64,000 nt of DNA from NCBI GenBank assembly GCA_973895155.1, contig OZ316895.1, positions 19,084,508-19,148,507 on the forward strand. The letters are read 5' to 3'. Below are positions 22,641-59,970 of this stretch, piece by piece. The notes below the pieces were generated by a model, which saw nothing but the letters and a program-made list of their open reading frames with translations, ran no database searches and was not told the DNA's origin. Made by a program: the position numbers and the translations under genes. Numbering within the stretch: the first letter of the stretch is position 1; each line of letters opens with the position of its first letter. The stretch comes from Marsupella aquatica. Lineage: Eukaryota > Plantae > Marchantiophyta.

Positions 22641-22832
22641 GATAGCAAGAGAAGCTATAGGAGCATTTGACCCACAAGATCTGTAGGAGAACTCATATTG
22701 CTGCCTGAGTTGCTGCAGCAAGTTAATGATTGTAACTGCAACCAAATTTTGACATCAAAATGAAATGCTCCAAATTTATTCCAAAATTGGCAAATTCAAA
22801 TCACATGAGAGTTGCATTTGTGTCCGATGCCT

Positions 22833-32616: not shown

Positions 32617-33127
32617 TAGCATGTAGAGTGAATATACATAAGAAAACCAATAGCATGCCATGATGTGCTGGGAGCATCTAAAGAGTCATGTAGCATGTAG
32701 AGTGAGTAGTACATAAGAAAACCAATAGCATGTCATGATGTGTTGGGAGCATCTAAAGAGTCATAGTCAATCCTCAAATGTGTAGAGAGGTGCCATGGAG
32801 TGTGCTGCCACAGTCAAGTGCTTGCAATGCTTTTAACTAAGACTCAAGAAGAACTGAAGTGAATGTGCAATGAGCAATCTAAGTATGTTGGCTCTGGAGT
32901 GCTCCTAACAAAAACTATTTGCTTCAAGAACAACCAGGGTTTGCTACAAGAACATTGCCCAAAGTGCTACTAAGAGGAGAATGCTTGCTTAGAGAACACC
33001 AAACATATCTATTATAGCTTGCATATATGGCCTCTAAACGATGAACCTAAACTACCATAATATCCTAGCGGGCGTGCACAGGGCATGGTGATGGGCGATG
33101 ATAACCATGCACTCTCGCACAACAGCT

Positions 33128-35271
33128 GTCGTGACATATAGAGTTGGTAGCATAAGATATCGAGACATGTATCATATGCATCCAAGTAACACAACAAAAT
33201 AGAAAACCAGAAAGATGATACATGGTTGTCCATTAACACCAAGATGAAGAAATGTTGGGGCATGAAAGTAAACCCCTGTATCCCCCCCCAAACCTGAGCA
33301 TGGAAATGGTCAACGGGCTGAGGATGAGCTTGGGGAAGGAGAACAAGAAGGACAGAACCATAGCCCTTCCGGAACTTGTGGAAGCTCAGGTCGCAAACAA
33401 AAGAGATGGTAACCACCGTTGCAATGGTCACACAACACCATCTGGTCAGCATCATCAATCCTGTGACACACCTTACAGGGATAATCCACCGGAGGAATCC
33501 AAGTAGAAGTCACAATGGTAGGGTCCAAGTTAGGCAAATGACAAGGGGCACAATTCTTAGCATGATCTTTGAGGGTATGACCATCTGCTCCTTGTAACTC
33601 CAACACACCTGAAGGATAGATGGACTTAACCCTGAGAATAATGCGACTGGTGGAGGTATCCAATGTGTCACTAGGCTGGCACTGAAGGTAAACAAAATCA
33701 CCCACATCAAACTGCCTCACCTTGGGCCTGAAGCTCCCTCCCCATGGGTGCGCATATTTGAGTGTATCACGATGTTGGGCAATTGTAAGGTTGTCCATAG
33801 CCATAGGCATGACTCTACGGAACAAGGCAGCCCTCTCTGATATGATAGTAGACCAGGTTTCCGTTGAGTCCAAGTCCACCACCTGAAGCATTTGAGAAGC
33901 AATAGAAGATGGAGGAACTAGATGCCGACCAAAAAGTAGAAAATAAGGAGAGAAGTTGGACGAGGCATGGTTGGACATGCGGTACCCCATGGCAATGTAA
34001 GGCAGTGCCGAGTCCCAATCTTTCTTGTTCTTGGTGAGGCATATTTTCTGCAATCCTTGTTTGCAGATCTGTACCATCCGCTCAGCTAGACCATCCGCTT
34101 GAGGATGATCCCTTGAAGTTCTATGATGATCAATGAGTGCATGGTCAAATAGGTCCTAAAATTCTCCTCTAAATTCAGAGCCCTGGTCAGTGAGACACTC
34201 TGCACCAGCCCCAAACCTGCTAAGCACTTGCTGGAGAAAAGCTTGGCTAGTGCTATGTACGTGAACTCTTATCAGGCAAGGCAACCAATTCAATCCACTT
34301 AGAAAAGTGCTCAATCATGATCATTATATAGAGGTTACCCCTGGATGTCAAAGGTAATTCTCCAGCTAAATCACAAGACCAGCGGTAAAACAATCCCTGA
34401 ATAGGGAGTGGATGAAGTATAGGCTGTCGAGAGGAGAATGAGGTTCGTACTCTGTCACACTGTTCACACCTAACTATGATATCCCGAATCTGAGCATGCA
34501 TCCCCTTCCAATGGTAGTGAGGAGCCATCAAACTATAAGTACGTTTGATTCCAAAATGCCCAAGTTCAGAATGTACTTTTTGACCAAGCCAGCCTTATCA
34601 GCAATTGGTGGAACCACTCTCTCGCCTTGTGGCAAACAGTGGACTAGGTGATCCCTTCCACACGTAACGCTTAGACCGTTGTTGTATCCAATCCCTTTGA
34701 GTAGTGGTCATGCCTGGTGGGTACTGCCTGTGCTGCAAGAAATTCAGAGTTTCCAAATCCTCCCAGATGTCCACAATGAGGTTGGTCAACAACGCTGCAA
34801 CAAAGCAAGGCAAGATAGGCAGAGGCCCCAAGTGTAGAGCTAGGACAGCATGATCAAAATCTTGCCGTGTATTTGAGAAATCTGTTGAAGTGATCAAAGG
34901 ACTGCGAGACATGGTGTCAGCATTCTGGTGAGTAATTCCAGGTCTATGAATAACTTCAAACTCATATTCTTGCAAAATGAGGGCCCAACGACCTAGCTTG
35001 CCAGTAAGCTTATCATTGGTCATCAACCACTTCAGTGGCTGGTGATCGGTAAAGAGCATGAACTTAGTGCCATACAGGTAGGGTCTGACATGTATGACAG
35101 CCCACACAACAGCCAAGCATTTGCCTTCATAAGAGGAGTAGTTGCTCTCAGCCTTGTTATTGCTCCTAGATGCATAAGCAATGACATACTCCCGCCCGTC
35201 CCCATCAGATTGACCCAGAATGGCACCAATACCTAGAGCACTCCAATCTTCTAGTACTTGATCCATCACCC
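33128..35271 (-). mobile_element. Inverted, internally deleted copy of the Ty3/gypsy element (RNase H - integrase - PHD finger - putative LTR start)
   Basis: Contains DWSALGIGAILGQ...IAYASRSNNKAESNYSSYEGKCLAVVWA (RNase H), integrase HHCC and core, and PHD CKVC...LCDHCNGGYHLFC...WFCPSC. Highly similar to the reverse complement of about 47280-49399. Confidence 0.92.
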
Positions 35272-35818
35272 TTGCCTGATAAGAGTTCACACAGCACTAG
35301 GTTCCATAGTTTCTTTGAGGACATAGTTGTCCTCTTCTGAGCAATCTCTTTTGGTTGCTCTTTTCTTTGATTGCATTGTACTTTACTTTTTGTGGCAGCT
35401 CCTTTGACTTTCATGGTCCCGGAGCTTATAATACATTACCATTACCATTACCATTACTAGCCAAGCTTTTCTCCAGCAAGTGCTTAGCAGGTTTGGGGCT
35501 TGTGTAGAGTGCCTCACTGACCAAGGCTCTGAATTCAAAGGAGAATTTCAGGACCTACTTGACCATGCTCTCATTGATCATCGTAGAACTTCAAGGGATC
35601 ATCCTCGAGCGGATGGTCTAGCTAAGCAGATGGTACAGACATGCAAACAAGGATTGCAAAAAATATGCCTCACCAAGAATAAGAAAGATTGGGACTTGGC
35701 ATTGCCTGACATTGTCATGGGGTGTTGCATGTCCAACCATGCCTCCTTGTCCAACTGCTCTCCTTATTTTCTACTTTTTGGTCGGCATCCAGTTCCTCCA
35801 TCTTTTATTGTTTCTCAA
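35271..35818 (+). mobile_element. Third fragment of the gypsy integrase (plus strand), interrupted by a LINE 3' tail
   Basis: Matches about 48256-48638 (LSRFGAC...CLTDQGSEFKGEF...). Confidence 0.85.
35301..35455 (+). mobile_element. Extremely 5'-truncated (155 bp) LINE family A insertion
   Basis: Essentially identical to the 3' end of the 44413-46165 copy, ends in (cattac)n, and is flanked by TSD actag (35296-35300 and 35456-35460). Confidence 0.9.
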
Positions 35819-35819
35819 A

Positions 35820-38800: not shown

Positions 38801-39334
38801 TCAATCTTGTTGGAAAAAGGTAGAGGCCATCCAAAAGCTTTTCTTGGAGATGGAGCTTGGAGCTTGGAGTGAAAACCCAAATTTCTATGAAGTTGAGACA
38901 AATGATTGCTAGATATAGACTCAGCTCACATCACTTGGAGGTAGAGGAGGGTCGATGGAAGGGAATTAGGAGGCAGGATAGGGTGTGTAGACTTTATGAT
39001 AATGGTAGCATTGAGAATGAATATCATGTATTCATAGCATGTAGACGGTATGAGGAGGTTCGAGTATCACATCAAATCCTTGTTTCTGATCTGCATGATC
39101 TATTTAGGTTGCCACCAAAGCAACTTGGATTGTATATCATGGCAGTGGATAGGAAAAGATGTGATAGCATTACACATTAGTGACTCTTAGGGTCCTTAGT
39201 TTGTTATTAGTGAGGATGTAGAGATCCTCACATGAGCATTTGACTCATTTCTTTGCTTTGTATTTGGCTTTTTTGCCACAGCTCCCTTGACTCATTGGGT
39301 CGTCGTGGAGCTTAGAATTTGACTTTGACTTTGA
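35820..39334 (+). mobile_element. Degenerate RTE/RTEX-like LINE family B (APE endonuclease - RT - C-terminal zinc finger; TTTGAC tail) with a nested 3' fragment of itself
   Basis: Motifs ADILLFMETW, GFGGIAVY, IVGDFNAR and TIDYLLAS (APE); QGCPLSP and FADDVVLL (RT); CRLCDSGSIENEYHVFIAC. The nested 3' piece at about 37748-38259 has its own (tttgac)n tail. There is an internal deletion at about 38880. Confidence 0.9.
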
Positions 39335-39382
39335 TTCATTCTCAATGGTGACTTTGTGATAGTGGTAGCATTGAGAATGAAT

Positions 39383-42300
39383 CAAAAGTCAAAGTCAAAT
39401 TCTAAGCTCCACGACGACCCAATGAGTCAAGGGAGCTGTGGCAAAAAAGCCAAATACAAAGCAAAGAAATGAGTCAAATGCTCATGTGAGGATCTCTACA
39501 TCCTCACTAATAACAAACTAAGGACCCTAAGAGTCACTAATGTGTAATGCTATCACATCGTTTCTTATCCACTGCCATGATATACAGTCCAAGTTGCTTT
39601 GGTGGCAACCTAAATAGATCATGCAGATCAGAAACAAGGATTTGATGTGCTATTCGAACCTCCTCATACCGTCTACATGCTATGAATACATGATATTCAT
39701 TCTCAATGCTGCCACTATCACAAAGTCTACACACCCTATTCTGCCTCCTAATTCCCTTCCATCTACCCTCCTCTACCTCCAAGTGATGTGAGTTGAGTCT
39801 ATATCTAGCAATCACGTGTCTCAACCTCATAGAAATGGGAGCTCTAAGATACTCTTGTTCTTCATACAACATCATGGGGTTTACATCCCTCATAAAATAC
39901 TATAATCTAGGGCTAGGATCACTCCAAAGTTTTCTAATAGCTTTATCACGCAAGAGTGACCAAAGCTTCTTTGGTTGAGTATGCCATTCATGCTCAGATA
40001 AGTCCCATGATTGGGCCCAGCTACATACATCAGCATACCAACCAAAAGCTCTAGATATGTGAAAGGCTTGCGTAGGTAGCCTAGAATCATTCAACGCCTC
40101 CACTCTCCTAGCATATTGAAGAGTGTGATAGAGAGCTTCAACCTCCAATGGTAGAAGACCTACCTCAGCCAATAACAAGGGGTATGGGGTTTGGGTTTTC
40201 ACTCCAAGCTCCATCTCCAAGAAAAGCTTTTGGATGGCCTCTACCTTTTTCCAACAAGATTGAGAAGTAGAAGGGCCCCATACTTGCACCCCATAAAGAA
40301 TAACAGACCTTATCAAGGAATTGAAGAGTTGTTTCTTCAACTTCCAAGTGGAAAGGCTTGCTCCCTTGCACTTCTTAACCATGCTGTAGAAGGCCTTGTA
40401 ACCATGAGCCACCCTATGCATCACACATGTAGCCCAACTCATGCTTCGAGAAAACTCCACCCCAAGATACTTGTAAGAGGTCACCATCTCCACCTTTTCA
40501 CCTGCAAAATAGAGAGAAAGGTCTTGCTTTGTACCAAGTACAAGGCACTTGGTCTTCCTCATGTTGACCTGCATGCCTGATTGTTTGCAAAAATGCTCTA
40601 GGGCTAGAAGATGTTGTTGCAAATCAGATTGGGAGTGAGCTAGAAGCACCACATCATCTGCAAATATAAGAAGTTGGATGGCCAGTGTTCCCAACTGAGA
40701 ACCTACGCCTCCCATCTCCTCTAGCAAATCATGTAGCTAGTCAATGAAGACCCCAAAGAGCGTTGGAGATAGTGGGCAGCCTTGGATCACACCAAGTGTG
40801 CTAGGAACCTCCTCATAGCTACTACCAGAGAATCTAATCATTATCTTTTGATACAATAGTGCAATAGCTATTATCATCTCAAGAGGAACTTCGAGACTAA
40901 TCAACCGCTCCCAAAGCTTGTGTCTACAAACCCTATCAAATGCTTTGGAGAAGTCTACAAACAAGCAAAATAGAGGTAGCTTGAGTCTTTTAGCCCTCTC
41001 CTCTAACACTCTAAGGCAAAGCATGTGATCTAGAGTACTAAAACCTGCCCTAAAACCAGCTTGTGATGATGCTCTTTTCATGTGTTTTTCAACCCAAGAA
41101 CTAAGTCTAGCTTCTAGTAGTCCTCCTAAAACTTTAGCAAAGATACTAGCTATCATGATAGTCCTATAACTCACCTCATTCTTAGAGCCTCCCTTGTGAA
41201 TAGGTACCAATCTCCTTGTACTCCAATCTGGAGGTAAGCCACCTTGGACCACTTGATTCAAACATGCAGTGAGTGCTGATACCAAAGAAGATCCACCCCA
41301 TTGTAGGAGCTCCACTGTGAACCCTTGAAAATCTGCAGCCTTGCCCTTTTGCATTCTAGATAGTTGAGTTTGCACCTCTATATCTGAGAATTGAATAGCT
41401 TCCCCAATCTCCAAAGGCATGGAAGTAGCTTCGGGATAGAAGTAGACAGACTTCACATAGCTTACCAATGTTTGTTGCTCCAAGCAAGTATCTTCTTTTT
41501 TCACCTGAAATCTCTTCCAAAAGCCTTTAGGATTCTCTTGAAGTACTTGAGAAAGCACTTGTTGATGTTGCCTCATGAAGCATCTCTTCTTGTGCTTCGC
41601 AAAGTTACTATACATTCTCAATGCAAGTAACTTTACATCTTCAGGTTGTGCCATGGCCCTCCTTCTAGCTTCTACACACTCTGCATCAAACCATGCTTTC
41701 ATGGTTTGTTTTGTGGACAATGATCTTTTAGAGAATGCAGTAGTAGCTGCTTTTGCTATCAGTTGTGATAGTTCCAACACATTGGAATGTGTTGTTAATA
41801 GGGCCTCAATCTCCCCTCTAAATACATCAGCCTTATCATGATCCAGAAAGAGTCTAGAAATATGTTTTTTCCTTGTTATCCCCTCTCTAAAATTTGTGGC
41901 CAAATCTAGATGAAATAACAAGGGTAGATGTGAAAACTCTGGTTGTTGATCAAGTATTCTAAAATCAATCACTCTATTAGTTGAAGATGGTGATGCTAGG
42001 AGATAATCAATGGTGCTATATCCTTGGCTTGATCTAAATGTATAACCTGATGAATGAGGAAATCTTTCAAGCCCATATAATATTCTCAGATTACAAAAAG
42101 CTCCTAATTGTAGAAAATGGGGTGTCATATCATTTACCCTAGTATCTATAGCTTTTCTCAACCAAGATGAGTCTTCATTACATGATATCCAAGGCAATGC
42201 CCCCAAATCTCCACTTTCAATGAATTGTTGGTGAGACACTCTAGCATTAAAGTCTCCCACTATCCATGTCCCTCCTAGTACTGATACATCATGTATAACT

Positions 42301-42995
42301 TGAATCAAGTTATGGAATGGATATTGTGCATTAGCAATTCCCATCTTGTACACATTCATACTAAGTGGGGTAAAATAGGTGGCAATTAGAAATGATGGAA
42401 TTCCTCTAGTATGTAGTCTCACCACCATGAATTGCTTGCTTGGATCTGGGGTAAATACAAACAACAGGAAACAGCAAACAGTAACAGAAACTGGTAACAG
42501 GAAAATGAGTGGTAAGGTTTTTGAAATTTTTTTTTGGGATTTGTTTTTGGGAAAAAAAAGGTTTTTTTTTTCAAAATTTTATTTTTTTTGCTAGTGCCCA
42601 AAGCTAGCCAAAAAATGTTGTAACTTAGATTTTTTTGGAAAATGAAACTTTTTAAAAAATATTTTGACATGGTTATTTTTCCTGGTAACAGTAACTTTTT
42701 GCTGGTGACAGGAAAAAATTTCTTGGTACCAGTAAACCTGTTTCCTGTTTACTCTCACGCGTGCCATACCCCTTGGATCTTCATGCTCAATAGATGTCAT
42801 GTGTTGAAGATGGTTCTTGGTGTAGACTGCAATACCTCCAAACCCTCTTCCCCTTGTGGTGTTCTTTTTATTGAAGAGAGATCCAATGCAAGTAAAATCC
42901 TTGATGCTAGGTAGATCATTCTCCTCATATTGCCAAGTCTCCATGAAGAGCAAGATGTCAGCATTCTCAAACAAGGGTTCTCCTCCTATTGCTGA
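39383..42995 (-). mobile_element. Near full-length LINE family B copy, tail-to-tail with the plus copy
   Basis: ORF pieces 42591-43013, 40737-42464, 39900-40727 and 39537-39893 give APE-RT-zinc finger, broken by a MITE and two TAG stops. Confidence 0.93.
42448..42772. mobile_element. 325-bp non-autonomous DNA element inserted in the LINE endonuclease
   Basis: Termini ggggta...tacccc. TSD ttggatct at 42440-42447 and 42773-42780 (a 9-bp reading cttggatct is also possible). The empty site is visible in the plus-strand LINE copy at about 36110. Subterminal aacaggaaa/tttcctgtt repeats. Confidence 0.92.
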
Positions 42996-43244
42996 GTCTC
43001 CTATGTCAACCATTCATTGCACGATTGGATTGAAGAAGATGAAGAGGAGTTGGCTACCACACAAGCCAATGAGAGCTTACTGTCTGCACCTACTGAGTTA
43101 GCCCCTCAACCTGAGGTTGTCCAATGGCTAAGAGCTGCCCATGGACCATTGACTATTGCTCTACAGCAATGTGAGGGCCTACAAAGCCATGGCCAGCCCA
43201 TCTTCCCAGTCTTGTGCACACTAATCACTTGGACACCTCCTCAA

Positions 43245-44200
43245 GATGGCGTTACCTTGCTGGAGCTTTTTGGTGACATTTCTACAGGCCTAGAGAGGGT
43301 CTTGCAGTCTGGCATGATGGTGAAGAGGTACATGATCTATGTGGACATTGACCCATATGCAAGGAAGGTGGCCCAATCATGGATGCTGGAATTTTCAGCT
43401 AGGTTCCCACAACAGTTTCCACCTAGTGCATGGAAGGCAAGCTTCACTCTCTTTCCTCCTGATGTTCAGTTGCTACAATAGAAACACATTGAGCTACTTG
43501 GTTCCTTGGACCTCATCATTGCTGGCTGGGAATGCCAAGGCTTCTTTGTTGCAGGTTCTGGAGCTGGTTTGAGTGATCCCCGGTCAGCACTCTTCATGGA
43601 CCTGGTACAAATACTCAATTGGGCCCAGGCTCTTTACCCTGCTGTTGGTTATGTCATTGAGAACACACCCTCTCAATTTGACCAGCGAAAGAACATCCAA
43701 GAGGATTTTCTTCTAGTCCAACACTATCTTGGTCCACCGTTCTTAATTGATGCAGCCCAATGTGGGTCTTATGCGCATTGTTTGCGTAATTTCTGGACCA
43801 ATATTGCACCGGTTAGCTTACTACAATTGGCTCTAAAACATACGGTCAGGGACCCTACATTACAGGTGCACCAGATTTTGGATGCTAATAGCTCTTGTCA
43901 GCCCGTCACTCGACAAGAGAGAGTACCTTGGTACCTTGCTAACACCATTGGGGAGCCCAGAGGTGCTTGGCCTACCTTTGTTTTGTTTCCTAGTGCCTAT
44001 GCCTTCTAAGGGGATGGACCAGGGCTGGTCTACCGTCACGCTTTGGATACATGGGATGAGCCAAGCTTGGAGGAGCGAGAGCGAGCTATGGGTTTCCAAA
44101 CTGGAAATACTGGTCATGTTAAAGTGACTAGGCTAGAGTGGAATTCTCTTCTTGGCCAAGTCATGGATCTTAATGCTTTAACGTGGCTTTTGGTTACTTG
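43245..44200 (+). pseudogene. DNMT3-like C5-cytosine DNA methyltransferase domain within the gypsy pol (frame kept, two premature stops)
   Basis: Motifs in canonical order: I LLELFGDISTG, II YVDID, III PDV, IV DLIIAGWECQGF, VI YVIENT, VIII IDAAQCGSYAHCLRNFWTN (cf. DNMT3 IDA..VS.AHRARYFWGN), IX-X ERERAMGFQTGNT...LLGQVMDL (cf. EMERVFGFP..YT...LLGRSWSV). Confidence 0.88.
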
Positions 44201-44412
44201 TATTCTTTTCCAGATGCATAATGTTCCTACTATGGGTGACCCAGCCTCTCGCCTTAATGAAGTTCTTACCTGGCACCCTGCTGAAGTACATTTACCCATC
44301 CTCTCCACTCTACATTTCACTCCTAGTGTTGGGGGGGGAGACGTACTCTGTAATGTGACTGAAATTTCAAAATCAGAGCATGGCATGGACCAGATCACAC
44401 CAGGCAAAGAGG

Positions 44413-46165
44413 AAAGCTCTTGGTTGGAGAGTGAGATGAAAAGGGCACCTTCACAAGCAGGTTTTAGGAGAGAATTCAGCACTATGGATCACATTCTCTG
44501 CTTGAGGGTGTTGTGTGAAAAGGCCAAATCTCCACATAAACCATTATTTTGCTTGTTTGTGGACTTCTCCAAGGCCTTTGACAAAGTTTCCCGATCCAAG
44601 CTTTGGGATAGGATGGTGGAGTTGGAAGTGCCTGAAGAGCTCAGGTTGGCTGTTTCTAAATTGTACCAAGAAGTGCGCATCAAACTTTCAAAGGAAACCT
44701 CTGAAGAAATCTGGAGCACTCTTGGGGTGATCCAAGGTTGTCCTCTCTCACCAACTCTCTTTGGCATCTTCATTGATCAGCTACACAACATTTTGGAGGA
44801 ACATGGTGGAGTTGGCACTCAATTGGGTAGGTTTGTCCTCCAACTTCTTATATTTGCAGATGATGTGGTCCTACTTGCTCATGCTCAAGAAGCTTTGCAA
44901 AGACATCTCAATGCCTTGGAGGAGTTTTGTCAAGCAACAGGGATGGTAGTCAACCTCAAGAAGACCAAGTGTTTGGGCATTGGCACACGACAAAATCCAG
45001 AGCTCTACTTCCAAGGGAATCTGGTGGAATTTGTGAGGACCTACAAATACCTTGGGGTGGAGTTCTCTCAAAACTTGAGTTGGGCCTCATGTGTAAAATC
45101 TAGGGCTGCCAATGGGTACAGAGCTTTTTATACATTCATGAACAAATGCAAAAGAGCTGGTCTACACACTTGGAGGTTAAGGAAACATCTCTTTGGAGCT
45201 TTGGTGAAACCAGTCATTCTTTATGGAGCACCAATTTGGGGAGCAGGTGTGTCTAAATCTGGGTGGCAACAGATTGAGGGGCTGCAAAAGCTATTTCTTG
45301 AGATGGAGCTTGGGATCAAGTCACAAACCCCATATGCACTTACACTTGCAGAGGCAGGCTTGTTTCCTTTGGAGGTGGAGGCACTCTTCCACACACTCAA
45401 ATACATCATGCGTGTAAGAGAGTTGGAGGAAAACAGATTTCCTTTTCATGCCTTGCGCTCATCTTCAGCTAAAGGGTGGTATGCAGATGTGTGCAGGTGG
45501 GCCCATGCTTGGGATTTTCCTGAACATGAATGGCCAACACACCCAACCAAGCTAAGAGCAAAACTTGAGCAAAAGGCTTTGCACAAACTTTGGCATGAAC
45601 CTAGCCCACGGCAGCAATACTACATGAGAGATGTGAACCCCATGAAGAAATATCGAGAACAAGAATACTTATCTAGCACTATCTCAGTACAACTTAGACA
45701 ACTTATTGCTCAGTATAGACTAAGCTCACACCACCTTGAAGTAGAACAAGGGAGATGGAAGGATATTGACAGGAAAAAGAGGGTTTGTCAACTATGTGAT
45801 AGCTCTAGTATAGAGAATGAATATCATGTATTCATTGCTTGCAAGTTTTATGAGGGGGTTAGGATGGCATCTCAAATCTTGGTGAAAGATTTGTATGCAT
45901 TGTTTGGTCTGCCCCCTCAGCAACTTGGAAGATATATCTTTGCGGTGGATAGGGAAAGGAGAATAGGTTTGGAAAATCTTTCAGGGCTCTCTAGGTCCAT
46001 AGGGCTCTCTAGGTCCATAGTTTCTTTGAGGACATAGTTGTCCTCTTCTGAGCAATCTCTTTTGGTTGCTCTTTTCTTTGATTGCATTGTACTTTACTTT
46101 TTGTGGCAGCTCCTTTGACTTTCATGGTCCCGGAGCTTATAATACATTACCATTACCACATTACC
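44413..46165 (+). mobile_element. 5'-truncated LINE family A insertion with an open RT/C-terminal frame, inserted between the gypsy DNMT and RT
   Basis: Open frame SSWLESEMKRAPSQAGFRR...FVDFSKAFD...QGCPLSP...FADDVVLL...CQLCDSSSIENEYHVFIAC, stop at 46037, (cattac)n tail ending at about 46165. Confidence 0.93.
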
Positions 46166-49100
46166 AGATTCTTCTAGTACACCCTCTACGCCATGCGTTG
46201 CAAATTTCTAGTTTGTGATGGGTAATCAATCAGTTGAGTAAGAAGCAACGGGATCAGGTACTGAATTTGCTGTTGAGCTATGAAGATGTGTTTGCTTTCT
46301 CAATGAGAAACTTGGGCAAGTGCAAGGTGATGCAATTCTCCATTGAGCTGATTGATGTGAAACCTATTTATCGGTGGAGACACCGGTTGAGCAAGCATGA
46401 GTAGCAGCTGGTGGATGAGAGATGTAAAGAGCTTTATGAAGCAGGTCTGGTCTGATCCAGCCCTCCAACTCTGACTTTGCAGCGGCTACAGTGATGCCAG
46501 CGAAGAAAGATTCTAGTGGGGCTATGGACAGAGAAGAGGATGTGCAGAGACTACAGGCCACTCAATCTGGTCACACCTCAAGACAGGTACCCCATGCCTA
46601 TCGCTGAAGAGCTCTTTGACTCCATTGGAGATTTTGATATCTTTACCCTCGTAGACGTGAGGCAAGGCAAACCAGATCATTATTCGGGCTGAGGATCGTA
46701 AGAAGACAACTTTTCATGGGAGCAATTGATTGTGGGAATGGCTGGTGATGCCATTTGGACTGAAGAATGCACCTGTCTTCTTTCAACGGGTGATGGATCA
46801 AGTACTAGAAGGTGCTGATTTCCTAAAATGCTATATTGATGATGTGTTAGTTCATAGCAAGGGTTTTGAGCAACACTTATTACATCTTGAAGAGTTGTTC
46901 AGGAGGCTGAGAAATGTTAATATGAAGATCCATCCCAAGAAGTGTGAGTTTGCTGTTACCTCAATGGTTTACCTTGGGCATCGAATCATTCCAAATGGCA
47001 CTATGGCTCATTGGGCTAAAGTGGTGTCTATTCTTGAGATGCCCAAGCCTACTGATACTCACACTTTGCGAAGCTTCATTGGTCTATGTAATTACTACAG
47101 AATTTACATCCAGGACCTTAGCATCATTGCTCACCCATTGTACATGTTGCTTAAGAAGGATGTTACCTGGAAATGGATTGAAGACACTCAGGTGGCATTT
47201 GAAACTTTGAAGGGAAAGTTATCAAGTTACCCTGTTCTCAGAAGGCCTGATTTCAGCAAAACATTCATTTTGCATACAGATTGGAGTGCTCTAGGTATTG
47301 GTGCCATTATGGGTCAATCTGATGGGGACGGGGGGGGGGGGAGTATGTCATTGCTTATGCGTCTAGGAGCAATAACAAAGCTGAGAGAAACTACTCCTCT
47401 TATGAAGGCAAATGCTTGGCTGTTGTGTGGGCTGTCATACATTTCAGACCCTACCTGTATGGCACTAAGTTCATGCTCTTTACCGATCACCAGACACTGA
47501 AGTGGTTGATGACCAATGATAAGCTTACCGGCAAGCTAGCTCATTGGGCCCTCATTTTGCAAGAATATGAGTTTGAAGTTATTCATAGACCTGGAATTAC
47601 TCACCAGAATGTTGACACCATGTCTTGCAGTCCTTTGATCACTTCAACAGATTTTTCAGATGCACGGCAAGATTTTGATCATGCTAGTCCTAGCTCTACA
47701 CTTGGGGCCTCTGCCTATCTTGCCTTGCTTTGTTGCAGCGTTGTTGACCAACCAATTGTGGACATCTGGGAGGATTTTGACACTTTGAATTTCTTGCAGC
47801 ACAGGCAGTACCCACCAGGCATGACCACTACTCAAAGGGATCGGATACAACAACAGTCTAAGCGTTACATGTGGGAGGGAGATCACCTAGTCCGCTGTTT
47901 GCCACAAGGTGAGAAAGTGATTCCACCAATTGCTGATAGGGCTGGCTTGGTCAGAAAAGTACATTATGAACTTGGGCATTTTGGAATCAAGCGTACTTAT
48001 AGTTTAATGGCTCCTCACTACCATTGTAAGGGGACGCATGCTCAGATTCAGGATATCATAGCTAGGTGTGAATAGTGTGACAGAGTATGAACCTCATTCT
48101 CCTCTTGACAGCCTATACTTCATCCACTCCCTATTCAGGGATTGTTTTACCGCTGGTCTTTGTGATTGAGCTGGAGAATTGCCTTTGACATCTAGGGGTA
48201 ACCTCTATATAATGATCATGATTGAGCACTTTTCTAAGTGGATTGAATTGGTTGCCTTGCCTGATAAGAGTTCACATAGCACTAGCCAAGCTTTTCTCCA
48301 GCAAGTGCTTAGCAGGTTTGGGGCTTGTGCAGAGTGCCTCACTGACCAGGGCTCTGAATTTAGAATTTCAGGACCTACTTGACCATGCACTCATTGATCA
48401 TCGTAGAACTTCAAGGGATCATCCTCAAGCGGATGATCTAGCTGAGCGGATGGTACAGACCTGCAAACAAGGATTGCAGAAAATATGCCTCACCAAGAAC
48501 AAGAAAGATTGGGACTTGGTGGCCTTACATTGCCATGGGGTACCGCATGTCCAACCATGCCTCCTTGTCCAACTTCTCTCCTTATTTTCTACTTTTTGGT
48601 TGGCATCCAGTTCCTCCATCTTCTATTGCTTCTCAAATGCTTCAGGTGGTGGACTTGGACTCAACGGAAACCTGGTCTACTATCATATCAGAGAGGACTG
48701 CCTTGTTCCGTAGAGTCATGCCTATGGCTATGGACAACCTTGCAATTGCCCAACATCGTGATACACTCAGATATGCGCACCCACGGGGAGGGAGCTTCAG
48801 GCCCAAGGTGAGGCAGTTTGATGTGGGTGATTTTGTTACCTTCAGCACCAGCCTAGTGACACATTGGATACCTCCACCAGTCGCATTATTCTCATGGTTA
48901 AGTGCATCTATCCTTCAGGTGTGTTGGAGTTACAGGGAGCAGATGGTCGTACCCTCAAAGATCATGCTAAGAATTGTGCCCCTTGTCATTTGCCTAACTT
49001 GGACCCTACCATTGTGACTTCTACTTGGATTCCTCCAATGGATTATCCCTATAAGGTGTGTCACAGGATTGATGATGCTGACCAGATGTTGTTGTGTGAC

Positions 49101-49899
49101 CATTGCAACGGTGGTTACCATCTCTTTTGTTTGCGACCTGAACTTCCACAAGTTCCGGAAGGGCTATGGTTCTGTCCTTCTTGTTCTCCTTCACCAAGCT
49201 CATCCTCAGCCCGTTGACCATTTCTATGCTCAGGTCTGGGGGGGATACAGGGGTTTACTTTCATGCCCCAACATTTCTTCATCTTGGTGTTAATGGACAA
49301 CCATGTATCATCTTTCTGGTTTTCTATTTTGTTGTGTTACTTGGATGCATATGATACATGTCTCGATATCTTATGCTACCGACTCTATATGTCACGACAT
49401 TTGTAAGAAATTTTGACAATTGAGATTGCTTTTTCCCAATAAGCAATTGTGATTGGTGAAGGATCGGGAACGGCAAATGAGCCCAGGAAATTACAAGGAA
49501 TCGGCCCCTTTGCTCATCTGGCAGTGGATTGGGAGACGCCTGATTGTGGTTATCAGAGGAATGGTGGCGGCTCTGCCCCGTATTAGGGTGGTAGAGCTGC
49601 AGGGTAGGCAAATGGGGGAAGATCTGGCTTCATCGGCGGAAGATTGGGCTCTACAAATCATGGTTATAGGAATTTCTTGCATCAAGACGTTTGAACAGGC
49701 AGTATGAATCCTCAAAAACCATTTGACTTGTTTGACAAATCTGCGCAAACCCATGTACGTCCAAACAATGATGATTTTTCCTCCAGGAAGAACCCCTTAT
49801 GGGAAGATCGGATACACTATGAACAAAATTAAAATGCAGAGGATAATGGTGGCCATAATGAGGAGGTGGCATATAAACAGGGAAATGCAACAAAAGTGA

Positions 49900-52800
49900 C
49901 AAAGGAGCATATCCAATTGTTACTGGCTATATTACAGCTCATTCATCTGGTGATTGGTCCTCCCAACTTCACACTACGTTTGAATGGCCTATTGAAGAAG
50001 CTGTGGCATCGGTTAAGCAGCTCAATGAGAACTCTATCCTATGTTACTTCACGGAAAGACCACCGTTTCTGCCTGTATTCAGATCACATTGAAGAAGCTT
50101 TCATCAGAGAAATGGGATGGTCGGTGCAGCAAATCAAATTTGTCGGACTTTTTTATTTATGTAGTGGTGTTCAAAAATTTGGTACATTGTGATCAGGCTC
50201 TCACCTTTGCTCCTTGGTTTATGGACAGGAAGTTCATGTATACCTTCCCTTGGGATCCGTCGTTCAATATTTGTAGTGAAACATACACTAAGCTTCCAGT
50301 CTGGATCGAATCCTATTTTGCGACTTGGTGTTTTAGGACTACACAAAGGGCATTGCTGCTTCTTTCGGCAAAGTGTTATATTACATTTAGGGAGACAAAG
50401 CTAGTTCTTACCCTCATGACAGGGTCTATATCCTTTGGGATACGGAGAGGGAAATCCCCCGCAGTGTCAAGGTGGTAGTAAGGAAAGATAATTATAGTGA
50501 TCTGGCAGCAGGTGGTTTTTAAGAATATCCCGTATCATTGCTTTTGCTGTAGTAAGCGCGGACATTTGGCCCAAAATTGTCCTTCTATTGCTGCCCCAAA
50601 GGTGTATGAAAAAATCTCTACTGAGGAGACGACAACAAACGAGGATAACACCCTTCCGTCTGTCAAAGCTGTCCCTGAGGACCCTAAAAACAATTCTACT
50701 ATTCCAATGTTCTGACCAAAGCAATCGCTCTTATGAATCCGACAATTGCCCGTGTGGACTATCTGGCGCGAAATGCTAAAGGAAACAATACTACTGTTGC
50801 TGTATCCACTCGAGGTGACCCCTCCTCGCTGATTCCCACCGGAGAAAATGGTATGGGAGTCGTCGCTCATAACAAACGTAATACTGACTCTATCCCAAGT
50901 GGAGCTGCTACCTCTGCGATTGCCCTTATTCCTGTGTTGAAGACTAATGATACATCACAGATTAACACTGCTACCAATGTGGAAGGAAGGATTCTGGATT
51001 CACAACTGGCAATAGAGAAGGTAGTCCCTATTGTCACTCCTGTGATCTTGGCTAACACTAGCAACGCTGAGGTTGCTCCTTTTAACAGGCTTGCTACCAT
51101 ATCTCCAAGTATTGCAGCTGGCAACAATGCTTCAAAATTGGGAGTGGAGAAGAGGAACGGATCATGGTGACTCAGATATAGAGATGTCAGAATATGAGGA
51201 ATTCACTACCAAGAGCCAGAGCAAGAAAGATAGGGCAAGGAAGCTGGAGCTAAGGGTGACCCCCGGTTAAGAAAGGAAAAAGTAAACAGGATCCAAAGAG
51301 AGCCAAAGAAACGTTGAACTTTCCTTCAGATGGAGGCTGATACTACCAACTTTTCACAGAATCAGGTAACTACCAGGAACATGGAGGTGGATGGTGCCTT
51401 CACTACTGTGCTGTCAAAAAAAGGGAAGAAAGGAAAGGAAGGGATGATGAAAATGCAGGGCATTTCCAGGGGCCATTAGTAATTTTCCTCAACTATTTTC
51501 TTTTGAGGTTGGTGATATAGAGACGAAGATACCACCTCTGCATATTGCTTCCTGGAACGTTTGCGGATTGTGTGAACCAAATAGGAAACATGTAGTAAAA
51601 AATTGGGTGAGAAAGCTAAAGTATCCCCTTGATGCATTAGCTCTGCAGGAAGTGAAAGCGGATCAATTTCGTTTAGATGTGGCACTACGATCTATTCTAC
51701 CGGATTACAAATACTTTTCCTCTGCTGCAGAACAGGGTCACGGAGGATTGGCTCTTATTGTTAGAGCTTCTTGGAACATTGTTGAATCTGGATCTATTGA
51801 TGAAGGAAGAGCGATGTGGGTTAGAATAAAACACGATACAGGAACTGTTGGAATAATTAGCACGTATGCCCCCAACTCTTTGGGTGAGCATGCTCTGCTA
51901 TGGAATGAACTAAAAACAGTTCTTCCTCTTGAAAATTGGATATTATGTGGGGACTTTAACATGATTGAATTGCAGGAAGACACCTCAAGACAAACTCCGA
52001 TTATCAAAGGCAGAGAGGCAGAATTTTGGAGATTTCTTAAGGTTAGATTCAATCTGGAGGATGCATAGAACATAACTGAGAACTTCTCTGGAGCCAAGTT
52101 TACATGGCGTAGAGTCAGACTTGGAAAGCTGGTGGAATCTTGATTAGATAGGTTTTACACTAGTGATAAAGGATGGTGGCTGGGGGAGGTGACAGAATTA
52201 AAGCATGAAGGAGGTTCAGCTCTCTCAGATCATGACCCAATCATTCTGAAAATTCTCCTTGCTAGGAATCTGCAGGAGGAAGCCAGCGGAAGATAACACT
52301 TTTTCAAGGCCAATCCAGTTGTACTCAATAGCTCTGGTGGTTTAGAGGCTCTAAGGGATGCTTGGAACAAATCAGTGGATGAAGAATCTGAACGGCACAG
52401 GCGATTCATGTTAGCTAGCAAAAGATTAAGGGTTTGTTACATTCGAATTCAAGATTAAGGGTTTGTTACATTCGAATTCAAGATTCACCGAAGCAGAAAG
52501 ATGAAGAGTTGGAATTCTTACGGAATAAACTCAGGCTTCTGAAAATATCTATTATGGAATCTCACAGTGAGGCTAAACTGAAAGATTACTCGGAGGTGGA
52601 AGAACAGGTCAGGGTGGCTGAGATGGAGGAAGCACAACACCTGAGGCGTATAGCTAGAATAAAATGGCTAGGGCAAGGCAACGAACCATCAAAATTCTAC
52701 TTTGCTACAGTACGTACCAAACGTTCAAGGGAAGCAATAGACAATCTGATTTTAGAAGACGGGAGTGGTCTCACAAATCCTCGTGAGATTTTACAACAGG

Positions 52801-54267
52801 TGGAATCTCACTGTCAAGGTTTATTTTCCCCGCAGCTGCTAGTGTTGAGGAAGACTCCCGACGACTATCAGCAAGAGAGAAATTGCTAAGTCAGACGAAT
52901 TTTGTCCTCTCTCCGGGAGAACTCAATATGCTGGAGTCTCTCCCCTCATTAAAAGAAATCCGAGACACTCTTTGGATTCTTCCTAATGACGAGGCCCCAG
53001 GACCAGATGGCATTACAGCGGAGGTGTACAGAGCTCGTTGGGAATTCATTCAGGAAGATTTGACTGCAATGATACATGAGTATTGGATTACAGGGGATCT
53101 GGCCTCTCGTATTAAGGATGGAATCATCAAGTTCATACCCAAGAAATCAGACAAGAGCAGGCTAAAAGACTGGTGAGCTTTAACAATGCTTAATACCATC
53201 TATAAACTCATAGCCAAAATCCTAGCTCTACATCTTAAGTGCACAAATTCATCAGCCCCCAACAGACTGGATTCATCCCAAGTAGATTTATCTTGTAAAA
53301 TATCTCCATAGCATGGTTGACTAGTGACTGGGTCCATTTCAAGAAACATGGGTCTCTCTTTCTCAAACTAGACTACGAGAAAGCCTTTGACAGAGTAAAC
53401 CATACTTACATTTGGGACACTATGTATCTATTAGGCATCAGTGGGCACTCTCGGGGGGGGGTCACTATATGAAGGGTCATACATCACGTGCGACGGTTTG
53501 GGTCATTTATGACCCCCCTAAGTCACTTTCTAGAAAGTTGTACGGCACCAATCATGTGATGACACGTATGCATTTTGCAATTAAACAACCCTATATTTCC
53601 ATAGAAGACTTAATAAGTCTTCCGCCAAAACTATTTAAATGGTCCTATACTTCATCGCACATGATATGCCACTTCCATGGAAGTGACCCCTCCGAGTGGG
53701 CACTTCATTCATTTAGTTAGAGCTTTGCTTAGCTCTACTGAGTCCAGAGTGCATGTTAACGGACTCCTCTCTAATTCTCTGACACTGGAAAGGGGTGTGA
53801 GACAGGGATGCCCACTTTCACCTCTGCTATTTGTCATTTTGACTCAACCCCTCATGGACCTGATAGATTCTGAACTGCATAGAGGTAATTTTTTTGGAGT
53901 CAAAATTACCCATGATCTTACTGTTTGCTACAGGATTTTTGCAGACGACATTGGTCTCTTCATCCCTGCAAGAGAGGAAGCATTCTTGCGAGCCAAAGAG
54001 ATTCTTACATGTTATGAGATTGCTTCTGGTGCTAAATTGAACCTCCAGAAGTTAGTGATCATACCATTGGCGCTCGAAGAGATACCGGATTGGCTAATAA
54101 ACACTGGATGCTCCATTAGTCAACCTGGGGAAGTACAGAAGTTTCTCGGTGCTCCAATTGGAATTGGGCTCACACAGAATTCCTTGCATAAGTTCTGCCT
54201 AGATAAGATCAGTTCCTGCATTTCATCCTGGACTACTAGATTCCTTTCCTTTATATTTATCACATGA
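49900..54267 (+). mobile_element. Degenerate L1-clade LINE (ORF1 with zinc knuckle; ORF2 endonuclease and RT)
   Basis: ORF1: APWFMDRKFMYTFPWDPSF, LPVWIE, CFCCSKRGHLAQNC. ORF2: SWNVCGL, LALQEVK, ILCGDFNM, SDHDPI, APGPDGIT, LDYEKAFDRVNH, GVRQGCPLSPLLF, FADDI. Many stops and frameshifts. Confidence 0.88.
53450..53696. mobile_element. 247-bp MITE inserted in the L1 RT
   Basis: TIR ctcgg(g)ngtcact and agtgacccctccgag. TSD tgggcact at 53442-53449 and 53697-53704. Confidence 0.88.
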
Positions 54268-56878: not shown

Positions 56879-59599
56879 TTAAGATCGGCTATCTACAGTT
56901 GAACCCCATGCCAAAACCCTGGAGGCAAGCCTGTGCAAAACACACTTGTCCAATGTGGGATCAGTGTCCTTTATCCACTGAATAATATGGTTTGCCTGAC
57001 TACTTCTACCTGCTTTGCAATAAGCATCTAAAACACCTTTGTAAGTCAGCTCCTGAGGTTTACAACCATTCTTTTTCATGTATTTCAGAACATTCATGGC
57101 TTCTCTATACATACCAAGATGACCATAACTACCTACAAAAGTATTGTACGTGAAAATGTTGGGCTTAACCCCAGAGTTCATCATTTCCAAAAATATTCTA
57201 GCAGCATCCTCCATGCGTCCATGCTTGGCGTAAGCAAGAATTAGAGTGTTGTAAGTGATCACATTTGGCTCCTGCCCTGCCGCCTGCATTTCTCTCAAGA
57301 CATCCTCGGCTTTCCTGTACATTCCTTCTCGACCATACATACTTATGACAACATTGTAGGTCACCAAATCTGGAGCAATGCCATTCTGCTGGACTATTTC
57401 TAGCAGTTTTAGAGCACTGTCCATTCGTCCCCTTCTTGAATAAACTGTGATCATAGCATTGAAAGATTTCAAATCCGGCAGGAATCCATCTCTGTACAGC
57501 TCCAACCATGCCGTCTCTGCCTCATCCAGCATGTTGCACTTGCTGTAAACAAGAACAAGAGTCTTCAAGAGCATATTACTAAGATTGCCGAATCGGGGAT
57601 ACAGTTCCTCTATTCTTTCCTGAAGAAGCTGCAATTTTCCCGCATTTCCATAGGCATGAAGCATGGAAGAATACGAAACTTCATTCAGCTCAATTCCCAT
57701 TTCCTGCATTTCTCCAACAAGCTCTTCGACTTCTTCCCATCGGCCTTCTCTAGCAAAAGCTGCTAACAGGGCGTTAAAAGTAGCGATATCTGGCTCACAA
57801 CCTGCTTTCTGCATTCCAGAGTAGATTTCTACAGCGTGATCTGCTGAACCACACCGACCGTAGGCATCAATAAGAATGTTGAATGTGTCCTTCTCTGGCT
57901 TGCACCCTGCCTTCTTCATATTTTTGAACACCATAGCAACCTCTTCATGCATGCCATGCTTCCCATACGCATCTACCATAGTATTCCAAGTAACCACATC
58001 TGGAGCACAAGCGCTGGCACGTAGGTCATCAAAAACCTGCAGCATTTCAGCGTACATCTTCTTCTTTCCGAACATATCTATCAGAGAGTTGAAAGTGAAG
58101 AGATTCGGTTTGCACCCGCCAGCACACATATGCCTATATGTCTCCATTGCCAAATCGTCTAGTCCAGCTGAGCTATAAGCGAACATAAGACTAGTATAAG
58201 TGAACACATCCGGTTGAAGTCCGTTCCAAGTCATGGATTTCATGAGAGACACAGCCTCGTCATAAAGCCCAGCTTTTCCATACGAAGACAGAAGCTCGTT
58301 GTAAGTGACGACATTGGGAGGGCAACCGGCCCTTTCCATATCCTGCAAAAGTTCTAACGCTTCTTTATGCCAGCCTGCCTTCCCATATACATCAAGCAGG
58401 GCATTGTAAGTAACTCTATCAGGTGTGCAACCTGCTGATTTCATATCCTCAAATATGCCCCTCGCTTGCTGGCACAGAGACTCCCTAACACAAGCACTAA
58501 TCATAGTGTTGTATGTATATCTGTCAGGACGAAATCCGTTGGCCATCAATTCATCTAGCAGGCCCTCAATTTTATCCCAAGAGCGCCCTTTCTTTCCACA
58601 AATATCGATAACCACGTTGTAGGTTACCAAGGTTGGACTACAGCCTTCGTCCTTCATTTTCTCAAACAGCAGAAGGGCCTCGGCAGATTTCCCATTGCGT
58701 GCATATGCACTTATGAGGGAAGTATAGCAGTATACATTCAAGCGATGGCCCTCGGCCTCCAAGCTCTCGAAGATCTTCACAGCTGTATCAAGTTGCTTTT
58801 CGTGGCCCAAAATCCTCAACATACTAGCTATGGTGGGCTCGTCCAGAATCTCCTTTTCCCACTTCCGCATCCACGTAAACACCTCCAGAGCCTGCTTCCA
58901 TTGCTTATCTTTCCCAAAAGTCTTTATCAGGGACAAATAATCATGAACACAAAGCTCTTCGTGAGCAGCATCCAGGAGAGCTCCTAGTGTCTCACCAGTT
59001 TTCTGCTGCTTCGCGGCGTTGTATACTTCTGTCCCAGCTGAAGACAATCCTGTTCGCCACGGATTGCCGTCCACTTCTCGATTTTTTCCTAATCGGCACC
59101 GACCTGCTCTTTGCATTGACGCTCCGACTGGGTAAGATGTGGCAGCTTTGGTATCCTCCCAAATGCTGCTCGAGCCTCTCCTTCTGGTCTCATCGCAGGA
59201 ACTAATCCTGGCCCAGGCCAGCCTTGGATTTTCTTTCTTACCACTGCTCACTTCCTCAGTATTATTAGCCGTGCCTTTCCAGTTGTTGTTGATGTAGTAG
59301 TTGCTACTGCTGTTGCTGCTGCCGCTACTGCTGCTAGCTGCTGAGCAACATGCTTCACTAGCTCGAACATCTTCAGGTCCCCAGCCGTGCTGCAGTTGCT
59401 GTTCCAACATCAACCTCTTCTTCCTCGCTTCAAGGACAGGCTCCAAAATTGCAGAAAGCCCACCGTTGGAGCCGAAACTCCGCTCCGAAAAGGACACAGA
59501 GTTAGGCACAGGATGGCGAACATAGTCAGGTCTCGGTGGCAGAGGTGGCGGCGGCGTGAGCACCGGGGCTGCTACTGAGTTGTTAGCCATGGCTTCCAT
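56879..59599 (-). CDS. P-class pentatricopeptide repeat protein, single coding exon, likely organelle-targeted
   Basis: Long open frame with first in-frame ATG at 59599 (MEAMANNS). A low-complexity N-terminus is followed by a long run of 35-aa repeats (YCYTSLISAYARNG, VTYNVVIDICGKKG, YTYNTMISAC, VTYNALLDVYGKAG...). No E/DYW domain. Confidence 0.95.
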   Translation of the reverse strand: MEAMANNSVAAPVLTPPPPLPPRPDYVRHPVPNSVSFSERSFGSNGGLSAILEPVLEARKKRLMLEQQLQHGWGPEDVRASEACCSAASSSSGSSNSSSNYYINNNWKGTANNTEEVSSGKKENPRLAWARISSCDETRRRGSSSIWEDTKAATSYPVGASMQRAGRCRLGKNREVDGNPWRTGLSSAGTEVYNAAKQQKTGETLGALLDAAHEELCVHDYLSLIKTFGKDKQWKQALEVFTWMRKWEKEILDEPTIASMLRILGHEKQLDTAVKIFESLEAEGHRLNVYCYTSLISAYARNGKSAEALLLFEKMKDEGCSPTLVTYNVVIDICGKKGRSWDKIEGLLDELMANGFRPDRYTYNTMISACVRESLCQQARGIFEDMKSAGCTPDRVTYNALLDVYGKAGWHKEALELLQDMERAGCPPNVVTYNELLSSYGKAGLYDEAVSLMKSMTWNGLQPDVFTYTSLMFAYSSAGLDDLAMETYRHMCAGGCKPNLFTFNSLIDMFGKKKMYAEMLQVFDDLRASACAPDVVTWNTMVDAYGKHGMHEEVAMVFKNMKKAGCKPEKDTFNILIDAYGRCGSADHAVEIYSGMQKAGCEPDIATFNALLAAFAREGRWEEVEELVGEMQEMGIELNEVSYSSMLHAYGNAGKLQLLQERIEELYPRFGNLSNMLLKTLVLVYSKCNMLDEAETAWLELYRDGFLPDLKSFNAMITVYSRRGRMDSALKLLEIVQQNGIAPDLVTYNVVISMYGREGMYRKAEDVLREMQAAGQEPNVITYNTLILAYAKHGRMEDAARIFLEMMNSGVKPNIFTYNTFVGSYGHLGMYREAMNVLKYMKKNGCKPQELTYKGVLDAYCKAGRSSQANHIIQWIKDTDPTLDKCVLHRLASRVLAWGSTVDSRS

Positions 59600-59970
59600 T
59601 TCTCTCTGCTTGCTTTGTGAGTTTGAGTTCACATCAAAACTTCCCCACGACAAAGAATATCACCCAGTAGAGAGCGAGAGAGTTGTTTTGAAGCAAACAT
59701 TGAGACGGACAATTGCCTTCAAAGTCCAAAAGGGAATCAATGCAGCCAGGAGGGGACCATAGTATGCTTCGCTTAATCTACAGAAACAATCTCGCTAACC
59801 TAATAACTTATTTTCCAAAAGCCTAGTCGGCTGATGAGATATTACCTATCCTACCTCCACTTCAAGGTAGACAGAAACAGGGAACGCCCTGGATCTGTTG
59901 CTATTCTGAATCGCGTAGTCGCAGAGTTCTTTCGCACGAACCAGAAGTGCACTTCAGTCGATCACTGTGC

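Follow-up and report, generated by a model that had tools for sequence, protein, structure and literature searches.

The stretch of DNA analysed here, called the window throughout, covers 64,000 nucleotides (nt) of the liverwort Marsupella aquatica (assembly GCA_973895155.1, contig OZ316895.1, positions 19,084,508 to 19,148,507 of the forward strand). Positions 42996 to 49399 hold a decayed copy of a Ty3/gypsy retrotransposon that carries, in this order, a DNMT3-like cytosine methyltransferase (MTase), an inserted long interspersed nuclear element (LINE), reverse transcriptase (RT), RNase H, integrase and a PHD finger. The anatomy as a whole, listed below with two further fragments, is considered nearly certain.

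42996 to 43242, plus strand: protease-to-MTase linker, aligned with the natural proteins P0033 (from residue 646) and P0090 (from residue 171), 3′ of their protease
43243 to 44200, plus strand: DNMT3-like C5 cytosine methyltransferase domain, broken, with two stops and substitutions in motifs I and VIII
44201 to 44413, plus strand: left part of the MTase-RT linker, collinear with P0033 and P0086
44414 to 46166 (end approximate), plus strand: 5′-truncated LINE within the linker, with short ATTACC repeats at its end; RVT_1 match at E 8e-28; one contig joins its two flanks
46167 to 47570, plus strand: right part of the linker, RT and RNase H, with frameshifts and stops; 68-85% identity to P0086
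47920 to 49050, plus strand: integrase (H2C2 zinc domain, rve core, C-terminal part), frameshifted; from Pfam matches and alignment to natural proteins
49051 to 49217, plus strand: PHD finger at the integrase C-terminus, plus stop codon, first zinc ligand lost; PF00628 match at E 1e-11
49238 to 49244, plus strand: G-run, probable polypurine tract; an identical G-run lies 5′ of repeat B in relatives
49245 to 49399, plus strand: repeat B (U5-like) with terminal CA, where the main copy ends (short form), the exact point at which the second copy runs on into the junction
39385 to 42999, minus strand: LINE truncating the 5′ half of the element; LINE 5′ end at 42999
32510 to 35249, minus strand: second fragment (long form) with RNase H, integrase, intact PHD finger, G-run, B, junction, A and a partial second B; 95% identity over 33127-35249, running on to about 32510
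33118 to 33133, minus strand: end junction inside the fragment, head to tail, reading CACGACA-GC-TGTTGTG; almost perfectly palindromic around a 2-nt spacer
35456 to 35819, plus strand: third fragment, an integrase piece behind a LINE 3′ end; 92% identity to 48281-48637

The order of protease, RT, RNase H and integrase, together with a gypsy-type RNase H and an H2C2 integrase, places the element in Ty3/gypsy, and RT, RNase H, integrase and PHD finger of the main copy each score above their Pfam cut-offs. This agrees with the original prediction, which was made from the letters of the window and had also described a C5-MTase fold with motifs I, II, IV, VI, VIII, IX and X in linear order. The motifs were located at 43266, 43338, 43524, 43656, 43773, 44073 and 44148, and PF00145 matched with 26 bits against a cut-off of 22. 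Positions 42996-44413 form one reading frame, intron-free as claimed, interrupted only by stops at 43479 and 44007. The LINE in the linker had been placed at 44413-46165, which agrees to 1-2 nt with the limits found (a start at 44414 in public contigs and an end at about 46166), and its 3′ end recurs at 35297-35453. Its flanks rejoin as proposed, both sides aligning to one continuous linker in P0033 and P0086.

An extra frameshift lies about 60 nt 3′ of this LINE, several more occur in RT, RNase H and integrase, and gag and protease were cut off by the LINE whose 5′ end is 42999. The substituted motif I position is kept in 45 of 45 relatives and the motif VIII position in 47 of 55. Because of the stops, the frameshifts, these two substitutions and the lost PHD zinc ligand, the main copy is judged to be dead, and its decay had been recognized from the start. 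The claim that the integrase ends in a C4HC3 PHD finger stood only in part: the finger is present, but its first zinc ligand is lost here, and a complete C4HC3 finger lies at 33331-33507 on the minus strand. In the second fragment, B starts at 33281 and 32615 (minus strand).

The MTase is encoded within the polyprotein; it does not represent a host gene lying next to the element. Natural proteins carry it within single open reading frames (ORFs): P0033 (1315 amino acids) contains part of gag, protease, MTase, linker and the start of RT, and P0086 (820 amino acids) contains MTase, linker, RT and RNase H. Both are collinear with the window across the linker LINE at 65-85% identity, and P0394, P0399 and P0400 are further natural single ORFs. 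A contig of run X1 joins 44416 to 46184 with 30 letters between, and two joints in run X4 (43873 to 47485 and 44058 to 46186) represent internally deleted copies. Metagenome loci were selected by RT alone (the best 80 of 533 matches) and merged at 98.5% identity into 63 clusters. The MTase was found upstream in 47 of the 51 loci with at least 2300 nt of upstream sequence (37 of 40 after de-duplication), mostly about 1770 nt before the RT probe, and the PHD finger in 46 of the 47 loci with sufficient downstream sequence (37 of 38 after de-duplication). Of the three MTase-less exceptions, L018 and L066 are 5′-truncated and L067 has a deletion that also removes part of RT. No ORF of at least 800 amino acids was present on the element's strand in any of the 80 loci, so all of them are decayed or mis-assembled. 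These loci are presumably moss DNA, since P0113, a gene model of Sphagnum magellanicum, encodes an almost identical protein. Scans of viral contigs with the MTase and with RT yielded no relative. Three outcomes had been named beforehand as speaking against the original prediction, namely no PF00145 match, RT and integrase relatives without the MTase, and a processed pseudogene of a host enzyme; none of them came true, no tree with host DNMT3 having been built for the third.

The MTase is predicted to be of the DNMT3 type, as first proposed, on the basis of its linear motifs, its catalytic cysteine and DNMT3 as the nearest solved fold. Among solved sequences, those of DNMT3A come closest to the window domain. 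A profile built from 21 natural members ranked DNMT3A first (1e-19), followed by DNMT3C, DNMT3B, DRM (1e-9) and HhaI (6e-6), and an AlphaFold model of P0085 (mean pLDDT 69) gave DNMT3A and DNMT3B as top Foldseek matches. All 52 proteins and all 41 loci retain the catalytic cysteine, and the motif I glycine and the motif VI Glu/Asn hardly vary across the range from chlorophytes to liverworts. Between the window and the loci, nonsynonymous (pN) and synonymous (pS) differences were 0.20 and 0.79 for the MTase and 0.136 and 0.78 for RT. With the protein conserved at saturated synonymous sites, the MTase is under purifying selection.

PHD fingers of the ING/BPTF type, which read H3K4me3, carry a cage tryptophan two residues before the zinc histidine. 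In the family studied here, this residue is glycine in 94 of 99 fingers and tryptophan in none, and the nearest solved fingers are those of WSTF, ATXR5, KDM5 and BAZ2, all readers of unmodified H3. MTase and PHD finger would probably come to lie on different cleavage products after proteolysis, because the former sits between protease and RT and the latter at the integrase end, as judged from the general biology of elements with long terminal repeats (LTRs). The coupled writer-reader module put forward in the original prediction is therefore no more than a possibility. The two domains also occur apart: two complete algal polyproteins with the same MTase architecture have no PHD finger, and the drawing of a PHD-bearing Chlamydomonas gypsy shows no MTase (PMC9940879).

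The features most telling for how the element works are its ends, which had gone unnoticed in that prediction. Comparison of the loci with themselves gave the repeat order A-coding-B-A-B, in which A starts with TG and holds a TATA box, and B follows the G-run and ends with CA. The 5′ end consists of A alone and another B precedes the A-B at the 3′ end, an arrangement that is not a pair of LTRs. This long 3′ end is present in about 20 independent elements, and another 11 terminate with the first B; in the window, the main copy is the short form, ending exactly at the CA of 49399, and the second copy shows B-junction-A-B. Target duplications were assessed in the nine elements with both ends located, two of them short forms (L038, L078 and L080, each with one end unlocated, were left out). 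Over these, 31 of 36 bases of the 4-bp duplications match and five duplications are exact, compared to a shuffled mean of 12.2 and none of 20,000 shuffles reaching the observed value; duplications of 3, 5 or 6 bp gave no signal. TG/CA termini and a duplication within the 4-6 bp range of gypsy elements were thus seen in metagenome relatives, the window copy having no 5′ end. The element works like gypsy, yet it is not a canonical LTR element. DIRS elements use a tyrosine recombinase and make no target duplication, and membership among them is ruled out by the rve integrase and the 4-bp duplications.

The junction between B and A reads CA, a 2-nt spacer, and TG or a mutated TG in 20 of 20 metagenome elements and is near-palindromic, the spacer being GC or a deamination product of it in 19 of 20. 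Several CG sites lie at the junction and the end of B within AT-rich sequence; on the A side of the palindrome, CG is mostly lost in the metagenome elements. In 13 of 20 elements, the bases directly following the 5′ A can pair with a site that lies 30-34 nt past the TATA box. Within one element, the two copies of a repeat are more similar than copies taken from different elements (0.876 versus 0.81 for A, 0.911 versus 0.865 for B), as would be expected of LTRs copied in each cycle. Separate inheritance of the two B copies was considered and rejected, same-position and cross-position identities between elements being equal. The joins differ in their constancy: the 3′ A-to-B join departs from its commonest form in 8 of 16 scored, the G-run-to-B join is alike in 24 of 30, and the A-to-primer-site join has the same three final letters in 18 of 18. 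Locus L028 also holds, at about 16365-16844, a lone A-B unit with no coding region beside it that resembles a solo LTR.

Named relatives, with MTase identity to the window, include Calypogeia fissa (76%), Marchantia polymorpha (43%), Klebsormidium nitens (KFL_013780020, 31%) and the chlorophytes Hariotina and Scenedesmus (37%), and further named members come from Sphagnum fallax, S. magellanicum, Closterium and Mesostigma. A land-plant lineage, as originally suggested, is borne out by the host itself and by these bryophyte relatives. Marchantia polymorpha contributes 18 records in one 90% cluster. Four motif patterns are retained in 11 of the 23 Marchantia records that were examined, some records being one locus in two assemblies. 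The Marchantia records are annotated as hypothetical proteins, and their identifiers occur in no paper searched. Five of them (P0003, P0050, P0051, P0057 and P0058) are near-identical gene models of 1278-1281 amino acids covering gag, protease and MTase, several on the V sex chromosome; their ORF stops about 85 amino acids past the MTase, so that RT may be a separate frame in that subfamily. The relative lists hold no named fern, lycophyte or seed-plant member, a weak negative since most matches lack names.

Two architectures were distinguished in a search of representative proteins, which gave 540 clusters at E up to 1e-30. Among the best 150 of these, 106 have retroelement domains and 44 are short MTase-only pieces. 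Type A, with the MTase between protease and RT as in the window, accounts for 13, and type B, with the MTase between RNase H and integrase or a pattern to that effect, for 93. The order RT-RNase H-MTase-integrase-PHD of type B is seen in P0010, P0297, P0313, P0319 and about 90 more, its named members being chlorophytes only (Hariotina and Scenedesmus), and long open ORFs occur in it, with ten records of 2487 amino acids in one cluster; no description of this architecture was found in the literature searched. In type B, and in type A from bryophytes, the PHD finger is common; it is missing from two complete type A polyproteins, which group apart from those of bryophytes.

An MTase tree was built with FastTree from 127 sequences, with fragments, MTase-only pieces and near-duplicates dropped, and was midpoint-rooted with no outgroup. 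In it, 24 type A sequences form one group (support 0.989) that holds every named streptophyte member entered, and the named type B members are chlorophytes. The gag-protease-MTase protein KFL_013780020 (P0369), the sole protein from K. nitens, falls inside this clade with the window. In raw identity, the window MTase is closer to chlorophyte type B (37%) than to the K. nitens protein (31%). The RT tree, which has no K. nitens RT, unites five type A sequences (support 1.0), the window grouping with Closterium and the others, and nests them in type B with weak support. KFL_013780020 is presumably the published KnitGypsy-Dnmt3 element, and the family is probably the lineage of that element extended to liverworts and mosses. 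A link to Phygy through an NCGN target preference is a lead only. A link to Selgy through the PHD finger was not borne out, the term being absent from the accessible part of PMC6317226.

These features suggest how the element may replicate. On balance, we lean towards a gypsy lineage with split-repeat ends that inserts from circular DNA, which its own MTase would methylate in the particle. Repeat A would correspond to U3-R and B to U5, with the RNA starting about 32 nt past the TATA box in A. The RNA would prime its own reverse transcription, in the manner of Tf1, by pairing with the bases just after A, and initiation of the plus strand at the G-run would give a cDNA bounded at both ends by B-junction-A, with the integrase sites internal. 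Joining of the cDNA ends into a circle would produce the variable A-to-B join. A cut by integrase at the circle junction is proposed because an internal head-to-tail junction with a 2-nt spacer occurs in 20 of 20 elements; a 2-nt staggered cut at this palindrome would leave two processed CA-3′ ends with 2-nt 5′ overhangs, the normal substrate of an integrase. Foamy-virus integrase has been reported to cleave palindromic 2-LTR circle junctions (PMC1180852). A two-repeat circle would then yield the long form, and the short form ending at 49399 would come from a circle with one repeat, from cutting twice or from recombination between B copies at a later stage. The protease would free the MTase next to RT, so that new cDNA could be methylated in the particle and arrive marked like host chromatin, a step that de Mendoza et al. 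proposed for DIRS elements (PMC5890265). The PHD finger would stay on the integrase, bind H3 tails unmethylated at K4 and steer insertion off active promoters; this specificity is suggested because the finger is closest to those of WSTF, ATXR5 and KDM5 and has no cage tryptophan.

Several observations weigh against this mechanism. The Klebsormidium enzyme gave no methylation in yeast, a result its authors call inconclusive (PMC5890265). The Pro-Cys dipeptide of motif IV in DNMT3-type enzymes is Glu-Cys in the window MTase, and glutamate likewise replaces the usual proline before the catalytic cysteine in 37 of 41 loci and in the members from Closterium and Mesostigma. The MTase is less conserved than RT, with pN/pS among loci of 0.098/0.194 compared to 0.076/0.207. 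CG depletion is weaker in the element (observed/expected 0.27-0.28) than in the LINE (0.11), and repeat pairs have decayed at 0.39 in CG, 0.39 in CHG and 0.18 in CHH; this pattern fits host silencing in all contexts and cannot show self-methylation. Locus L067 has both ends and an exact duplication and yet lacks the MTase and part of RT. The self-pairing stretches of 10-15 nt are not above the best control windows (10-17 nt), so the case for the priming site lies in its fixed position. Finally, the permuted form expected from a two-junction circle was seen at none of 21 5′ ends, three of which have less than 300 nt of flank, and a bias must be assumed.

Other roles for the MTase have to be weighed against methylation of the new cDNA. 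The enzyme might chiefly methylate the CG-containing end junction, either blocking the integrase from re-cutting long-form copies or limiting the cut to one circle junction. The several CG sites at the junction and the end of B amid AT-rich surroundings would suit such a role, as would the single permutation seen, and the other DNMT3 carriers, SymbioDIRS-Dnmt3 and KnitGypsy-Dnmt3, also have A-coding-B-A-B ends (PMC5890265). However, the A-side CG of the palindrome is mostly lost in the metagenome elements and host enzymes could shield integrated copies, and we consider this role unlikely. A broader version is somewhat less doubtful, though still improbable: an ancient gypsy lineage of green plants, present in chlorophytes and charophytes as well as in liverworts and mosses, would have given up paired LTRs, would carry a ready-made junction and insert from a circle, and would use its own DNMT3 to methylate the junction so that the integrase cuts the right site and spares integrated copies. 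If true, a eukaryotic retrotransposon would contain a switch resembling restriction-modification, and Marchantia has MTase copies that appear to be intact.

It is just as unlikely as the junction-directed role that the domain has little or no catalysis and is retained in the particle for DNA binding or structure, or to act as a decoy towards host factors. The glutamate in motif IV, the inactivity of the Klebsormidium domain in yeast (PMC5890265) and the faster evolution of the MTase relative to RT speak for it. The near-invariance of the catalytic cysteine, the motif I glycine and the motif VI Glu/Asn from chlorophytes to liverworts argues otherwise, and Pro-Cys is retained in the Marchantia and Klebsormidium members. 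Ranking a little lower again is an active MTase used for self-restraint, by which new copies would silence themselves and spare a haploid-dominant host so that the lineage persists. This idea was raised by de Mendoza et al. (PMC5890265) and agrees with the heavy deamination of copies in all contexts; that decay is equally explained by host silencing, however, and the recent near-identical Marchantia set indicates that the family can expand. Virtually no weight is left for a chance juxtaposition or a processed host DNMT3/DRM pseudogene beside a gypsy element. The window locus, broken and interrupted by two LINEs, could by itself have suggested it, but the constant spacing to the RT probe in most loci, the natural single ORFs and the LINE-free join speak against it, as do motifs not permuted as in DRM and best relatives that either have retroelement domains or are short MTase-only pieces.

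Further features lie elsewhere in the window. A multi-exon TOPLESS/TPR gene lies at 3142-11388 on the plus strand, with a 128-nt tandem duplication (8333-8588) that includes an exon start; its identity is 87% to Calypogeia (100% in one exon), 82% to Riccia, 75% to Marchantia paleacea and 77-78% to four mosses, values that point to a leafy liverwort as the likely host. A Mutator-like element spans 18853-24212 and is bounded by terminal inverted repeats at 18853-19018 and 24047-24212. It contains MULE and SWIM ORFs on the plus strand (19550-22640) and, on the opposite strand, an ORF at 22833-23549 in which an RNase H1 N-terminal (Cauli_VI) domain was matched at E 1e-17. Between 35893 and 42999, two LINE copies of 94-98% identity face each other, with a 957-nt near-palindrome at 38881-39836; taken together, the facing LINEs and the inverted gypsy fragments may have arisen by an ancient inverted duplication, or they may be an artefact of assembly. 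Directly 3′ of the terminal CA, at 49400-54267 (plus strand), begins a LINE of a second type, of which gag-like, endonuclease and RT remnants are left. On the minus strand, an intronless ORF of 926 amino acids at 56879-59659 is pentatricopeptide-repeat-like by eye, and a remnant at 16452-16868 is like a Harbinger-type transposase by eye.

The concept of a DNMT inside a gypsy element has already been published; what the present family adds is the land-plant range, the PHD finger and end structures that suggest a circle-junction route. In the literature searched, with subscription journals, theses, Repbase and some supplements outside its scope, no prior land-plant description and no such junction mechanism was found. 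DNMT-bearing elements in "streptophytes", a word that could include bryophytes, are mentioned in PMC12344493 and bioRxiv 10.64898/2026.05.21.726589, and passages of PMC10952607, PMC9516144, PMC6453930 and a Marchantia sperm preprint deal with host DNMT3 only. According to an opinion paper, land plants such as tracheophytes lack methylase-encoding transposons, a loss for which it offers an explanation (PMC6338049), whereas the present family is common in bryophytes. Split ends would escape programs that look for LTR pairs, the probable reason why plant catalogues built in that way (PMC6317226) could miss the family. The question raised in 2018, of what an element-borne DNMT does, becomes testable in the genetic model Marchantia, and bryophyte methylome work may include uncounted de novo MTases. 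If the circle route is true, it would be a different way of replication for a retroelement with a DDE integrase.

Compared to known systems, the family is closest to KnitGypsy-Dnmt3 of Klebsormidium nitens, which has a DIRS-like repeat order and is under purifying selection (PMC5890265). Both have an intronless DNMT3-like domain in a gypsy polyprotein and the order A-coding-B-A-B (PMC5890265). The window family differs in its presence in liverworts and mosses, in Glu-Cys instead of Pro-Cys and in a sequence identity of only 31%. It also has a PHD finger on its integrase; neither PHD nor Marchantia is mentioned in the accessible text and three supplements of the KnitGypsy-Dnmt3 report, and that text is without the termini, duplications, priming and junction described here (PMC5890265). 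SymbioDIRS-Dnmt3, whose DNMTs methylate CG in yeast, shares a DNMT3 domain in Pol and A-coding-B-A-B ends, but these are dinoflagellate tyrosine recombinase elements, whereas the window family has a DDE integrase and 4-bp duplications (PMC5890265).

PHD fingers are well known in retroelements (PMC6673714, bioRxiv 2021.11.30.470311, PMC9940879). Gypsy-7a_cRei and other PHD-bearing retroelements share with the window family a finger in the gypsy polyprotein and a proposed role in steering insertion (PMC9940879, PMC6673714). They differ in having ordinary paired LTRs and, in the figure legend, no MTase (PMC9940879). EpiLTRs likewise are LTR elements that pair a DNA methyltransferase with chromatin-reader domains; they carry DAM, a DNMT4-related enzyme and a chromodomain, occur in Cymbomonas and Euglena, and are stated to be distinct from Gypsy-DNMT3 (bioRxiv 10.64898/2026.05.21.726589). 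For the proposed replication route, the Tcn1/Tf1 gypsy elements share self-priming in place of a tRNA primer (PMC6317226), and foamy virus shares an integrase that cuts a palindromic end-to-end junction (PMC1180852). These systems have ordinary LTRs (PMC6317226, PMC1180852), whereas the junction of the window family is preformed in the integrated copy and in the predicted RNA.

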